This document shows, piece by piece, positions 49,518 to 55,272 of a stretch of 64,000 nt of DNA. Position 1 is the first letter of the stretch; each line of letters opens with the position of its first letter. A program made the position numbers and the translations under genes. The DNA comes from an uncultured bacterium (GTDB lineage: Bacteria; Patescibacteriota; Minisyncoccia; Phycocordibacterales; Phycocordibacteraceae), in the NCBI GenBank assembly GCA_963851445.1, contig CAWKPH010000001.1, positions 159,943 to 223,942 on the forward strand, given 5' to 3'. The notes beneath the pieces were generated by a model that was not told where the DNA came from, did no database searches, and saw only the letters and a program-made list of their open reading frames with translations.

Positions 49518-49929
49518 CTACACCATCTTCACATCAATCGTAACGCCTGAAGGAAGATTGAGATTCGTGAGAGCCTCAATAACCTTTGCGTGATGGCGAA
49601 AGAATGTCGATGAGACGCTTGTGGATGCGCATTTCGAACTGTTCGCGTGAGTCCTTGTGGATGAATGTCGAACGGTTCACGGTCCAGCGCTTTATCTCAG
49701 TTGGAAGCGGAACGGGACCGACAATTTTCGCATCGAAGCGATTAGCGGTATCCATGATCTGCTTCACCGAGAGATCAAGAATCTTGTGCTCATAGGCGCG
49801 TACGCGAATGCGAAGCTTTGGTTCTGCGCAGGCTCAGCTTCTTTTTTCGAAGCTCTTTTGGCAGGCGTTTAGCGGCTGCTTTTTTACCGCAGCTTTCGCT
49901 ACAGTCTTTTTTGCGGTTGAGTTTGCCAT
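49518..49929 (-). pseudogene. rpsJ: 30S ribosomal protein S10, interrupted by at least three 1-nt indels
   Basis: Lys/Ala-rich N-extension from ATG 49927-49929 (MANSTAKKTVAKAAVKKQPLN...). Core ...AQNQ(K)[39 protein letters not shown]...[11 protein letters not shown] is recovered only by switching frames at an A-run (ccaaag). C-terminal [23 protein letters not shown] is in yet another frame. Confidence 0.75.
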
Positions 49930-49965
49930 ATACGATTCAAAGATCCAGTTTCAGTTACAAATTGA

Positions 49966-51170
49966 TTATGCGACGATCTTGGTTACAACACCAGCACCGA
50001 CGGTCTTGCCGCCTTCACGAACTGCGAAGCGAGTGTTGTCCTCAAGTGCGATAGGAGCAATGAGCTTTACCTTGAAGGTAACAGTGTCGCCTGGCATAAC
50101 CATTTCCTTTCCTTCAGGAAGAGTAACTTCGCCGGTCACGTCCGTCGTGCGGATGTAGAACTGAGGCTTGTACCCAGAGAAGAATGGAGTGTGACGACCG
50201 CCTTCGTCCTTAGTGAGAATGTATACTTCAGCTTCGAATTCAGTGTGAGGAGTCACTGAACCAGTCTTTGCAAGAACCTGACCGCGGTGTACATCTTCTT
50301 TCTTCGTACCGCGGAGAAGGATACCAGCGTTGTCGCCAGCCTGACCTTCCTGGAGCTGCTTGTTGAACATTTCGATACCAGTAACAGTCGTCTTTGCGGT
50401 TGGCTGAATACCGACGATTTCGACTTCTTCACCAACCTTGACGATACCGCGCTCGATACGGCCGGTGACAACCGTTCCGCGACCTTCAATAGAGAAGATG
50501 TCTTCGATAGGCATAAGGAATGGCTTGTCGAGTCTCGCGCTCTGGGTTGGGAAGTAGGTGTCCATTGTGTCAACGAGTTCCTTAACCTTTAGAGCCCAAG
50601 GATCGTCAGCTGAAGTTAGCTTCAAGAGCCTTAAGACCTGAGCCGCGGATAACTGGCGTAGCTGCGCCATCAAAGCCCTGCTTGGTGAGAAGTTCACGGA
50701 TTTCCTCTTCAACGAGGTCGACCATGTCCTGGTCATCAACCATGTCTACCTTGTTAAGGAAGACGATGAGTCTTAGGCACACCAACTTGCTTTGCAAGAA
50801 GGATGTGCTCACGAGTCTGAGGCATCGCGCCGTCAGTCGCAGCAACCACGAGCACTGCGCCGTCCATCTGAGCGGCACCAGTAATCATGTTCTTGATGTA
50901 GTCGGCGTGGCCTGGAGCATCAATGTGCGCGTAGTGACGATTCGGCGTCTCGTACTCCGAGTGGTGGAGGGCGATAGTAATACCACGAGCCTTTTCTTCA
51001 GGCGCGTTGTCGATATTATCGACCTTCTCGGCGCGGGCCTTGTAGCCAGCATCCTTGTTGAGATTGAGGACGTTGAGGATAGCAGCGGTGAGCGTGGTCT
51101 TGCCATGGTCAACGTGACCGATGGTGCCTACGTTCATGTGCGGCTTGCTGCGATCGAATGCTTCTGCCAT
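49966..51170 (-). pseudogene. tuf: Elongation factor Tu, split over three reading frames (at least two frameshifts)
   Basis: G-domain [27 protein letters not shown] (50754-51170). Middle ...[27 protein letters not shown]... in a second frame (50606-50878). Domains II-III ...[27 protein letters not shown]... in a third (49966-50739). Confidence 0.85.
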
Positions 51171-51336
51171 ACGTTTGTAAAGTTACAATAAAAGTTACTA
51201 ATTCGGAGTATTTCCCCGCGAGACGCTATCTCCTACCCCTGTATTGCTACAGATAGCAAAGAAACGCCGTGACACGCGTTGTAGTAAAAATACACGGCCG
51301 TTCGCCAAAGGTCAAGCATTTTGTTGCTCCAACGGG

Positions 51337-53022: not shown

Positions 53023-53062
53023 AGGTACGTAAACTTATTTGTAAGCTCACATAGTATATACC

Positions 53063-53090
53063 AAAAGCGCGCCCTCTAGGGCGCGCTTTT
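53063..53090 (-). terminator. Rho-independent terminator after fusA
   Basis: AAAAGCGCGCC-CTCTA-GGGCGCGCTTTT. Confidence 0.55.
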
Positions 53091-53110
53091 ATATGCTGGT
53101 TAAATTTGGC

Positions 53111-55272
53111 TTATTTGCGGCTTGCGATGATATCGTTAGCGACGTTGGTAGGGACTACTTCGTAGTGGTCGAACTCCATGGTCATGGAGCCGCGACCTTC
53201 AGTCATCGAGCGAAGTGTTGTCGTGTAGCCGAACATTTCAGAAAGCGGCACTTTGGCGTGGACCGCTTTATTCATGCCGCGATCTTCCATGCCCTCAATA
53301 GCGCCGCGCTTTCCAGAAAGTGATCCCGTGATGTCACCCATGAATTGCTCTGGGATGACAACTTCCACATTCATAATCGGCTCAAGGATAACGGGCTTTG
53401 CCTTCTGTGCAGCTTCTTGGAACGCCATCGATGCAGCGATCTTGAATGCGATTTCAGAGGAGTCGACATCGTGGTACGAGCCGTCGTAGAGATCGATCAG
53501 AGACGTCGACAATCGGATAGCCTGCAAGGATACCGCGATCGAAGTGATTCGCGCATTCCCTTTTCAACAGCTGGAATGTATTCGCCTGGAATAGCACCTC
53601 CCTTAATGTTGTTGATGAATTCGAAGTTCGCTTCGCGCGTGACGTTCTTTGCGAACTTTTGCTTCAGGATCAAGCGGCTCCATGTGCTTCATGTTGAATC
53701 TTCACGTGACCGTACTGACCCTTACCGCCCGTCTGCTTGATGTATTTCCCTTCAGCGTCAGCAGTTCCCATGACGGTTTCGCGATACGCCACTTGTGGCT
53801 TGCCGACATTTGCGCCGACATTGAACTCGCGCTGCATACGGTCAACGAGAATTTCAAGGTGAAGCTCGCCCATGCCTGAGATGATAGTCTCTGCGGTTTC
53901 TTCGTCGATCGTAATTTTGAAGGTTGGGTCTTCGTCAGAAAGTTTGCGGAGCGCTAGTACCCATTTTTTCCTGGTCAGCCTTCGTCTTTCGGCTCGATGC
54001 GGAGCGACACCACTGGCTCTGGGAATTTAATCTGTTCGAGAATGATTGGGTTTGCTTCGTCACAGAGCGTGTGCGAAGTCTTTGTGTCCTTGAGACCGAC
54101 GCTGCAGCGATTTCTCCGGTGAATACCTTCTCAACTTCCTCGCGCTTGTCAGCCTGAAGACGCACGATACGTCCAACACGTTCCTTTCGTGCCCTGTTTG
54201 CGTTGTATATATAGGAACCTGCAGTGACTGTTCCTGCATAGACGCGGAAGAAGGTAAGAGCTCCCACGAATGGGTCGGTTTGAAGCTTAAAGGCAAGCGC
54301 CGTGAATGGCTCGTCGTCTGAAGGCATGACGTTCAATTTCCTCACCTGTCTTTGGATTAATACCTTTCACAGGTGGAAGGTCGAGCGGACGATGGAAGGT
54401 AATCAACAACAGCATCAAGCACGAGCTGCACACCTTTATTCTTGAGTGCAGAGCCCGTGTAGACCGGGAAGATTTCGTTATGCGATAACTGCCTTGCGAA
54501 GTACCTTCTTGAGTTCTTCGAGTGGTGGCTCATTCCCCTCGAAGATATGCGCGACATCGCTGCTTCATCGTGCTCAACGATGCGCTCAACGAGTTCGGCA
54601 CGGATATTTCTTCGCATCCTCTACGATATTTCTCAGGAACTTCCCCTTCGATAACGTCTTCGCCCATGTTTCCGGTAAAGGTGTAGGCCTTCATGGTAAG
54701 AAGATCGATCACGCCTTCGAAATCGCCCTCTGCGCCCATAGGAATCTGTGCGCGTACTGCTTTCTTCGAAAGGCGATCAAGAATGGATTTATAGGAATCC
54801 TCGAATGAAGCTCCGGTGCGGTCGAGCTTATTGATGAAACAAATGCGAGGCACTCCTGCTTCGTCCGCATAGCGCCAGTTTGTTTCTGACTGAGGCTCAA
54901 CACCTGCAACGCCGTCGAAGACGACGATAGCACCGTCGAGTACACGCATGGAGCGCTTCACTTCTGCGGTGAAGTCGATGTGGCCTGGGGTGTCGATCAC
55001 ATTGAACCGGAATTTCTTTGAAATGTCCTTCTTGTCCGGTTCGTTGAGTACGCGTCCAGAAACAGGTAATGGCAGCTGCAGTAATGGTGATACCGCGCTC
55101 GCGCTCCTGCTCCATCCAGTCGGTGGTGGTCTCGCCCCTCGTGCACTTCGCCAATTTTGTGCTGGGAACCGGTGTAGAAAAGCACGCGTTCAGACGTAGT
55201 CGTTTTGCCAGCATCGACGTGTGCGACGATACCGAAATTGCGTACTTTCTCGAGTGGATAATCGCGATTCAT
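53111..55272 (-). pseudogene. fusA: Elongation factor G, fragmented into at least six ORFs by numerous frameshifts
   Basis: Collinear EF-G pieces in alternating frames: [35 protein letters not shown]; ..[24 protein letters not shown]; [28 protein letters not shown]...; ..[21 protein letters not shown]; [28 protein letters not shown]...[10 protein letters not shown]; ..[16 protein letters not shown]; C-terminal domain IV-V ...[20 protein letters not shown]... Confidence 0.85.

Follow-up and report, generated by a model that had tools for sequence, protein, structure and literature searches.

Clustered frameshifts in fusA, tuf and rpsJ of a CPR bacterium are best explained as mixed-read consensus errors

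Long-read sequencing errors of the classic kind are distributed genome-wide, concentrate in homopolymers and are, for Nanopore data, mostly deletions; chimeric paths through de Bruijn graphs preserve the reading frame. In strain-level assemblies of long reads, indels are described as a main cause of ORFs with shifted frames and of absent marker genes (Strainberry; PMC8302730), and a large Nanopore-only MAG project, considered here for comparison only, used Flye with one Medaka round and found variable polymorphism among its MAGs (PMC12313526). The locus analyzed here carries a dense group of frame changes in three translation genes. Judging from sequence comparisons, these frameshifts are very probably not a property of the organism's own DNA but errors of the consensus, made by mixing in reads of related bacteria from the sample over the most conserved genes.

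The window, by which we mean the whole 64-kb stretch analyzed, carries the affected genes on its minus strand in the order rpsL (S12; 56578-56171), rpsG (S7; 56165-55701), an 85-aa ORF (55648-55391), fusA (EF-G; 55272-53111), a 467-aa ORF (52740-51337) in a variable slot, tuf (EF-Tu; 51170-49966), rpsJ (S10; 49929-49518) and, beyond an ORF-poor spacer, rplC (L3; 48085-47462). Pfam matches confirm that rpsL, rpsG and rplC are uninterrupted, as are the genes for RecG (732 aa), FtsH (677 aa), a 936-aa protein, a 663-aa peptidase and a 581-aa ATPase. The 467-aa gene, which is also intact, is lineage-specific, with almost no homologues in a homology search and no Pfam family, and serves as an internal control. 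The database record of its protein uses an internal start. Approximately 20 frame-changing events fall within the 3.7 kb of fusA, tuf and rpsJ, and none was detected in the rest of the 64 kb; the breaks are therefore neither uniform noise nor a chance distribution. The preliminary description, which had confined them to these three genes and called their distribution nonuniform, was right on both points. A fourth candidate, infC, was suggested by overlapping ORFs (27629-28373) with a partial IF3_C match and was rejected when three-frame translation showed infC, rpmI and rplT to be intact. At gathering thresholds, one tmRNA and two tRNAs were the sole Rfam matches in the whole window, leaving the ORF-poor spacers without one, and no second copy of fusA, tuf or rpsJ is present within the 64 kb.

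Frame changes were located by frameshift-aware alignment of the proteins of intact relatives to the window DNA. Such an alignment can open a frame change only at a codon boundary, which partly dictates the placement of these changes after the third codon position. fusA contains 15 events, of which 13 add one nucleotide, one adds two and one removes one, at approximately 55133/55137, 55046, 54625, 54603, 54554, 54480, 54389, 54328, 54101, 53989, 53958, 53693, 53653, 53541 and 53498. The earlier estimate of at least six pieces thus captured the broken state of the gene and set the number too low, as 15 events leave about 16 pieces. tuf lies in three pieces, as had been described, through two +1-nt events at approximately 50774 and 50617. 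rpsJ undergoes about three frame changes: one of +1 nt at approximately 49590, and at least two more, near 49866-49860 and 49828, that bound an out-of-frame stretch in its Lys/Ala-rich N-terminal extension. The frame of the rpsJ ATG is also its final frame, and the intervening stretch reads correctly only in another one. Over all three genes about 18 bases are inserted versus about two deleted, and nearly every indel adds a single nucleotide at a site that is not in a homopolymer.

When the frames are repaired, the three genes encode full-length EF-G (715 aa), EF-Tu (approximately 400 aa) and S10 with no in-frame stop, and amino acid identity to relatives is 93% for fusA, 92% for tuf and 89% for rpsJ (EF-G is 91 to 93% identical to EF-G of Paceibacteria). 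The collinearity with complete proteins that had been noted for the repaired products thus holds. Nucleotide differences from relatives are distributed over the first, second and third codon positions as 36/26/331 in fusA and 21/21/144 in tuf, and only 1 of the 416 EF-G columns that are invariant in 108 homologues is altered. The repaired frames carry the signature of purifying selection.

These properties bear on the reading that the genes are true pseudogenes, whether they stem from the decay of a duplicated part of the str operon or were inactivated recently, with intact copies elsewhere or a host supplying the functions. The breaks are indeed present in the deposited assembly itself: the 687,765-bp NCBI/ENA contig that carries the S7 and L3 of the window is also the recorded source of an EF-G fragment with an out-of-frame tail (P0144). 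Decay of this extent would have left 20 indels with no in-frame stop, a single altered invariant EF-G residue and approximately 84% of differences at third positions. It would also have favored insertions, and bacterial pseudogenes are reportedly biased toward deletions, as Mira, Ochman and Moran are said to have found in 2001. Moreover, the broken genes are found where the canonical rpsL-rpsG-fusA-tuf-rpsJ-rplC order places them, a position common to the inspected relatives with intact copies, and the interleaved 467-aa ORFan, a nonessential gene, is undamaged. We consider pseudogenes exceedingly improbable, and neither form in which the preliminary description had proposed them, a decaying second copy of an operon segment or true pseudogenization, is supported by the comparison.

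Among the relatives, fusA is intact in all 26 examined (713 to 728 aa), and synteny is alike in the three whose neighborhoods were inspected (L003-L005). This is the comparison with sister genomes that had been proposed as a check, and none of the breaks in the window is conserved in it.

Independent evidence comes from k-mer contigs of the same sample (run ERR11630394). L002 (37462-49488) is 100% identical to the window over 12,027 nt and ends in a palindrome 30 nt past the rpsJ stop codon. L001 (55103-61632) is identical to the window down to 55202 and then accumulates seven mismatches and one indel in its last 98 nt, within fusA, where it ends. L086, a Logan contig (50886-52808), is 100% identical over 52808-51163 and then shows 16 mismatches without gaps within tuf, where it also ends. 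In total, the contigs and the window differ at 0 of 20,096 nt outside and at 24 of 383 nt inside fusA and tuf (Fisher p = 1.6e-42), and the divergence begins exactly at the gene borders. Nearly all of the mismatches in the two genes fall at third codon positions (22 of 23, counting in its corrected phase the one that follows the 55133 insertion), 15 of the 16 in tuf among them. The sample is thus heterogeneous in sequence, and this heterogeneity is restricted to these conserved genes. A homology search for further haplotypes of the same sample with a 97-aa EF-G fragment returned 22 short fragments, none of them from ERR11630394.

Only one of the approximately 20 sites is covered by an independent contig. 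At 55133, the first frameshift in fusA, the minus strand of the window reads GGGGC-G-AGAC and L001 reads GGGGC-AGAC; the extra G is absent from the contig. L001 carries a different haplotype at this site, and its sequence is short of strict proof that the window haplotype is without the insertion. The window sequence reads as the C of a CAG (Gln) allele followed by GAG (Glu), the allele found in relatives.

The sequence contexts of 16 insertions (13 in fusA, 2 in tuf and 1 in rpsJ) are informative about how they arose. Fourteen lie in runs of two or fewer identical bases, and the usual contexts are TAT+c, CGT+c, GTT+c, CTT+c, ACT+c, TCG+t and GCA+t, in which the third position just before the insertion could take the added base without a change of amino acid. 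Ordinary platform noise left after polishing, that is, homopolymer-length or methylation-motif basecalling errors, could account for the two contexts in runs of three or more (GAGGGGC, with G4, at 55137 and CCGAAAG, with A3, at 53989, both in fusA) and for one rpsJ shift that may fall in an A6 run. The remaining contexts do not fit it: an A8 run inside the 467-aa gene is intact and is the same in L086, and no motif common to the insertion sites is visible beyond a T followed by an inserted C. Noise of this type would not respect gene borders either, and the flanks contain not a single difference in 20,096 nt. Platform noise is accordingly a very unlikely source, and the proposal of homopolymer or methylation-motif errors in the preliminary description fails on the run lengths in the first case and on the lack of a shared motif in the second.

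A more specific pattern emerges when the insertions are treated as retained alleles. For 10 of the 13 single-base insertions in fusA, removing either of two different bases yields codon pairs that occur among the 26 relatives, compared with a proportion of 0.43 for simulated random insertions; the significance is modest (binomial p of approximately 0.014).

It might instead be supposed that the frameshifts are real and decoded through programmed ribosomal frameshifting, transcriptional slippage or RNA editing. The perfect repaired products would agree with such recoding and are nothing specific to it. The break sites are heterogeneous in context, with neither a slippery motif nor an A/T run of seven or more; about 20 sites of mixed sign would have to be decoded over three genes, not one of them conserved in the 26 relatives; and the insertion at 55133 is missing from the independent contig of the same sample. 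We regard the probability of recoding as negligible. More generally, it is highly improbable that the approximately 20 indels are real in a CPR bacterium, with its sole canonical fusA, tuf and rpsJ frameshifted under strong purifying selection. Were they real, they would imply an unknown recoding or editing mechanism, or reliance on a second or host-supplied set of these genes.

The mixing of reads on conserved genes, which we favor, is consistent with what these genes share with other populations. Exact 31-mers in common with the loci of other species occur only in tuf (95) and fusA (31), and lowering k to 25 adds only rpsJ and rpsL to these two. Nucleotide similarity of fusA, tuf and rpsJ to related populations is 82 to 87%. 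rpsL counts against this reading, as its nucleotide conservation (81%) is nearly equal to that of the broken genes, yet it is unaffected. We propose that the sample contains populations related to this Paceibacteria/Kaiserbacteria-like CPR bacterium, and that their fusA, tuf and rpsJ reads would have been recruited to the contig through the 82 to 87% similarity and the exact shared 25- to 31-mers, over these genes only. Where the reads disagreed at a SNP, mostly at a synonymous third position, both alleles would sometimes have been kept in tandem by the consensus step to give a 1-nt insertion, and occasionally neither would have been kept, giving a 1-nt deletion. Unique sequence (the 467-aa gene, the spacers and the less conserved genes) would be free of error because only native reads are recruited there. 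The source was presumably built with an alignment-and-consensus (long-read) assembler or polisher. Taken together, the divergence of the contigs, the indel contexts and the shared k-mers support the locus-specific consensus errors by cross-strain or cross-species recruitment that had been listed among the possible explanations, and the EF-G, EF-Tu and S10 of this organism are almost certainly normal.

A variant of this explanation keeps the consensus artefact and draws the second set of reads from a co-existing conspecific strain, with identical flanks and fusA, tuf and rpsJ that are 5 to 7% divergent, for example through recombination from a sister species. The exact coincidence of divergence with gene borders agrees with two strains, and so does L086, in which a tuf allele that differs from that of the window 8 nt into the gene is connected through k-mers to the upstream spacer, which is specific to this genome; the native flank is therefore physically continuous with at least one alternative allele. 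Two strains would nonetheless require three recombination tracts, each ending at gene borders and skipping the 467-aa gene, and a second strain is unnecessary if L086 holds the native allele. Recruitment across species is the simpler account, since long exact k-mers in common with other species are confined to these genes. The two-strain variant is thus unlikely, though it is the least so of the alternatives, and we infer that the foreign reads came from other species and not from a second strain.

Similar local breakage is found in other public assemblies of this clade. In ENA ERZ25039478 contig_40451 (L087), fusA lies in at least four pieces, with nine similar frame-shifting events, and tuf in two; these broken genes adjoin an intact gene of more than 1,400 aa. 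A JGI contig (L088) and two fragments (P0125 and P0131) are broken in a similar way. The underlying biology would be ordinary. In practice the observation serves as a caution on assembly quality: the damage falls on the most conserved marker genes in a deposited 688-kb CPR genome and in L087, L088, P0125 and P0131, and phylogenies, estimates of completeness and counts of pseudogenes make use of such genes. Taken at face value, the frameshifts would lead to false claims of pseudogenization or recoding in CPR bacteria. The indel signature described here could serve for automatic flagging and repolishing of such regions.

Each of the known systems resembles the window in part. The indel errors of long-read genomes and metagenomes likewise consist of single-base indels that split full-length ORFs, whose repaired products match homologues; the window departs from their classic form in that only three conserved genes are affected and in that the indels are mostly insertions, outside homopolymers and at polymorphic third positions. 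Pseudogenes in reduced genomes, such as that of Mycobacterium leprae or those of endosymbionts with poly-A slippage rescue, share with the window the multiple disruptions, the recognizable genes and the small genome, but the window displays no substitutional decay, no stops, an insertion bias, no long poly-A runs and a canonical operon. Collapsed-haplotype consensus and chimeric MAG genes show the remaining features: conserved genes draw the reads or k-mers of related populations, the k-mer contigs of this sample are interrupted or change haplotype in these genes or next to them, and the resulting consensus is unlike any single haplotype. In contrast to chimeras of a de Bruijn graph, the retention of two alleles in tandem in the window requires an alignment-and-consensus step.

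The str/S10 operon junction under study lies on the minus strand and comprises, in order, rpsL (56578-56171), rpsG (56165-55701), a small 85-aa ORF (55648-55391), fusA (55272-53111), a 467-aa ORF (52740-51337), tuf (51170-49966), rpsJ (49929-49518), and rplC (48085-47462), followed by rplD. Our own frameshift-aware dynamic programme, used to align proteins of relatives with the DNA of the window, located 15 frame-changing events in fusA (single-base insertions in 13 cases, a 2-base insertion in one, and the loss of a single base in another), two single-base insertions in tuf, and one single-base insertion near the C terminus of rpsJ (49590). 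At least two further rpsJ events are needed in the Lys/Ala-rich N-terminal extension, because the frame of the ATG is also the final frame, whereas the middle stretch reads correctly only in another. Pfam shows S12, S7, L3, RecG, FtsH, the 936-aa protein, and other long genes to be unbroken; infC, suspected as an extra frameshifted gene, was found intact. The preliminary description of frame breaks in fusA, tuf, and rpsJ alongside intact long genes therefore holds; fusA is indeed broken, but the count of at least six pieces was too low by more than twofold. The breaks belong to the deposited assembly, since a database EF-G fragment that is exactly the window's 54530-55000 piece, including the out-of-frame tail (P0144), shares its 687,765-bp contig (in NCBI and ENA) with the window's S7 and L3.

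Three loci of relatives (L003, L004, and L005) have the gene order of the window and an unbroken fusA of 715 aa; tuf (400/401 aa) and rpsJ (121/122 aa) are also unbroken in L003 and L005. Across 26 relatives (23 species-representative genomes plus these three loci), fusA is one unbroken ORF of 713 to 728 aa in every case. After repair, the window EF-G is likewise 715 aa long, with top matches at 91% identity to EF-G of Paceibacteria, Parcubacteria, and Kaiserbacteria MAGs, all of them CPR (Patescibacteria) bacteria. The slot between fusA and tuf is occupied by a variable gene that differs per genome (467 aa in the window; 153 aa in L003, 10280-10741; 621 aa in L005, 10224-12089). Homologues of the 467-aa protein are almost absent, and it belongs to no Pfam family; its charged N-terminal part rich in Lys and Glu, its hydrophobic, Gly-rich C-terminal region, and its Gly/His tail recur in the L005 slot protein. 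The slot gene thus has the look of one for a membrane-anchored protein that evolves fast within the str operon. The 85-aa predicted membrane protein between rpsG and fusA has no Pfam family; its position, length, and W-x-SPVGLGIF motif are kept in L003 and L005.

The rpsJ-rplC interval spans ∼1.4 kb with a sole ORF of 113 aa (49085-49426); the ∼1 kb between this ORF and rplC (48086-49084) is free of ORFs longer than 80 aa, unlike the gene-dense rest of the genome, has no Rfam match at gathering thresholds, and is matched only weakly by tblastx, to the L003 rpsJ-rplC spacer. This gap is not an error, because it is 100% identical in an independent contig (L002). Within the S10 ribosomal-protein operon, three opposite-strand genes (43160-45314, plus strand), one of them DUF3298, lie between rplB and rpsS, and a DUF3298 gene is at the matching place in L003. 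Between rplE and rpsH, where rpsN normally sits, are three ORFs of 186, 184, and 90 aa, none with a Pfam family, and a 0.5-kb ORF-free gap (37120-39191, minus strand). The plus strand also carries a full-length tmRNA gene (25065-25479; Rfam RF00023, 86.5 bits) and a tRNA-Ile with anticodon TAT (UAU; 22116-22191), an uncommon bacterial reader of AUA, the usual one being the lysidine-modified CAU tRNA.

The preliminary description had also offered a decaying second copy or genuine pseudogenisation as explanations. Under neutral decay, 20 indels should bring many nonsynonymous changes and several stops. The repaired frames contain no in-frame stop codon, and their products are 93% (EF-G), 92% (EF-Tu), and 89% (S10) identical to those of relatives. 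Nucleotide differences at codon positions 1/2/3 number 36/26/331 in fusA and 21/21/144 in tuf, and EF-G deviates at only one of 416 columns invariant in 108 homologues (G358A). Some 18 bases are inserted versus ∼2 deleted; bacterial pseudogenes reportedly show a deletion bias (Mira, Ochman, and Moran, 2001). These observations argue strongly against both forms of decay of fusA, tuf, and rpsJ.

Nor do the indels resemble homopolymer or methylation-motif basecalling noise, a further suggestion that we reject: homopolymer extensions are a minority, and the sites show no shared motif beyond T followed by an inserted C. Programmed recoding was also rejected. On the coding strand, insertions typically occur as TAT+c GTA, TAT+c CGT, CGT+c ATG, GTT+c GCA, CTT+c GAT, ACT+c AAC, TCG+t CCG, GCA+t AAC, and TCT+g ATC; in each, the inserted base is a synonymous alternative to the preceding third codon position, often the L003 allele. 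The sole fusA deletion takes out a third position (GC-). Of the 13 single-base insertions in fusA, 10 can be undone by either of two one-base deletions, each giving codon pairs found among the 26 relatives (expected fraction 0.43, from simulating random insertions in the genes of relatives; binomial p ∼0.014), a result that is supportive rather than decisive because the alignment method itself sets shifts between codons.

Look-ups by exact protein sequence retrieved three Logan k-mer contigs of run ERR11630394. Of these, L001 matches window 61632-55103; its first 6,431 nt are identical, and the final 98 nt, where it stops within fusA, hold all its differences (seven mismatches and one gap). 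The gap corresponds to the G at 55133 that the window has in excess and that causes the first frameshift of fusA, and L001 reads through this site unbroken over 16 residues. L002 (window 49488-37462) shows no differences over 12,027 nt and ends 30 nt past the rpsJ stop. L086 (window 52808-50886) is fully identical over the 467-aa gene and spacer, with 16 mismatches and no gaps in the first 258 nt of tuf; its first difference falls only 8 nt into tuf, so this version is k-mer-linked to the genome-specific spacer. Pooled, the contigs differ at 0 of 20,096 nt outside the conserved genes versus 24 of 383 nt inside (Fisher p 1.6e-42), and 21 of 23 mismatches are at third codon positions (22 after re-phasing the one downstream of the 55133 insertion). 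The sample therefore contains several versions of fusA and tuf, and these flanks are joined to others besides that of the window. Immediately downstream of rpsJ (49473-49502) and immediately upstream of the 467-aa gene (∼52770-52808) are palindromic hairpins resembling terminators; L002 and L086 terminate within them.

The damaged genes are those most similar between species: compared with the nearest other species available, rpsJ (87%), tuf (86%), and fusA (82% over 2.1 kb) have the highest nucleotide identity; rpsL is at 81%, rpsG at 77 to 83%, and rplC, rplD, and rplB at 73 to 79%. In a comparison with 80+ loci of other species, exact 31-mers are shared only by tuf (95) and fusA (31), and 25-mers only by tuf, fusA, rpsJ, and rpsL. 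The lineage-specific 467-aa gene, error-free despite two damaged neighbors, has one shared k-mer at k = 17 and none from k = 21 up. Shared sequences of this kind are where foreign reads would begin to cross-map and where a k-mer graph would become tangled.

The frame breaks are thus very probably an artefact, present in the sequence but no real biological feature. The suggestion of locus-specific consensus errors from read recruitment to conserved genes fits both the pooled mismatch contrast and the confinement of shared 31-mers to tuf and fusA. Most likely, the most conserved genes of the contig drew in reads of related, probably unassembled populations, and an alignment-and-consensus step then wrote some SNPs as both alleles in tandem (insertions) and dropped others (deletions). 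We infer a consensus or polishing step, of a kind typical for long-read pipelines, because a pure de Bruijn graph chimera would preserve frame. That the heterogeneity is cross-species rather than within-species is less certain. Indel-driven frameshifts occur in long-read metagenome assembly, where strain mixtures play a role (PMC8302730); one large project, with no shown link to this genome, used Flye and one Medaka round (PMC12313526).

Comparable breakage is seen in other public assemblies. In another Paceibacteria contig (L087; ENA ERZ25039478 contig_40451, 176.7 kb), fusA is in at least four pieces (5481-7634) with nine frame-shifting events of the window's type (TAC+g, TCG+c, ATA+c, GTG+a, AAG+c, GCG+g, and third-position deletions), the TCG+c falling at the Ser292 codon also hit in the window; tuf is in two pieces (9528-10728), and an adjoining gene of >1,400 aa is intact. 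JGI 3300072490 (L088) has a fragmented fusA (4800-5420) behind intact 2,016-aa and 708-aa genes, and two database fragments (P0125 and P0131) have out-of-frame tails; a third assembly (L089) is generally noisy and uninformative. Local fusA/tuf fragmentation is a recurrent data-quality problem for the marker genes of this clade, and the cluster in the window is of use only as a quality flag for MAG marker genes.
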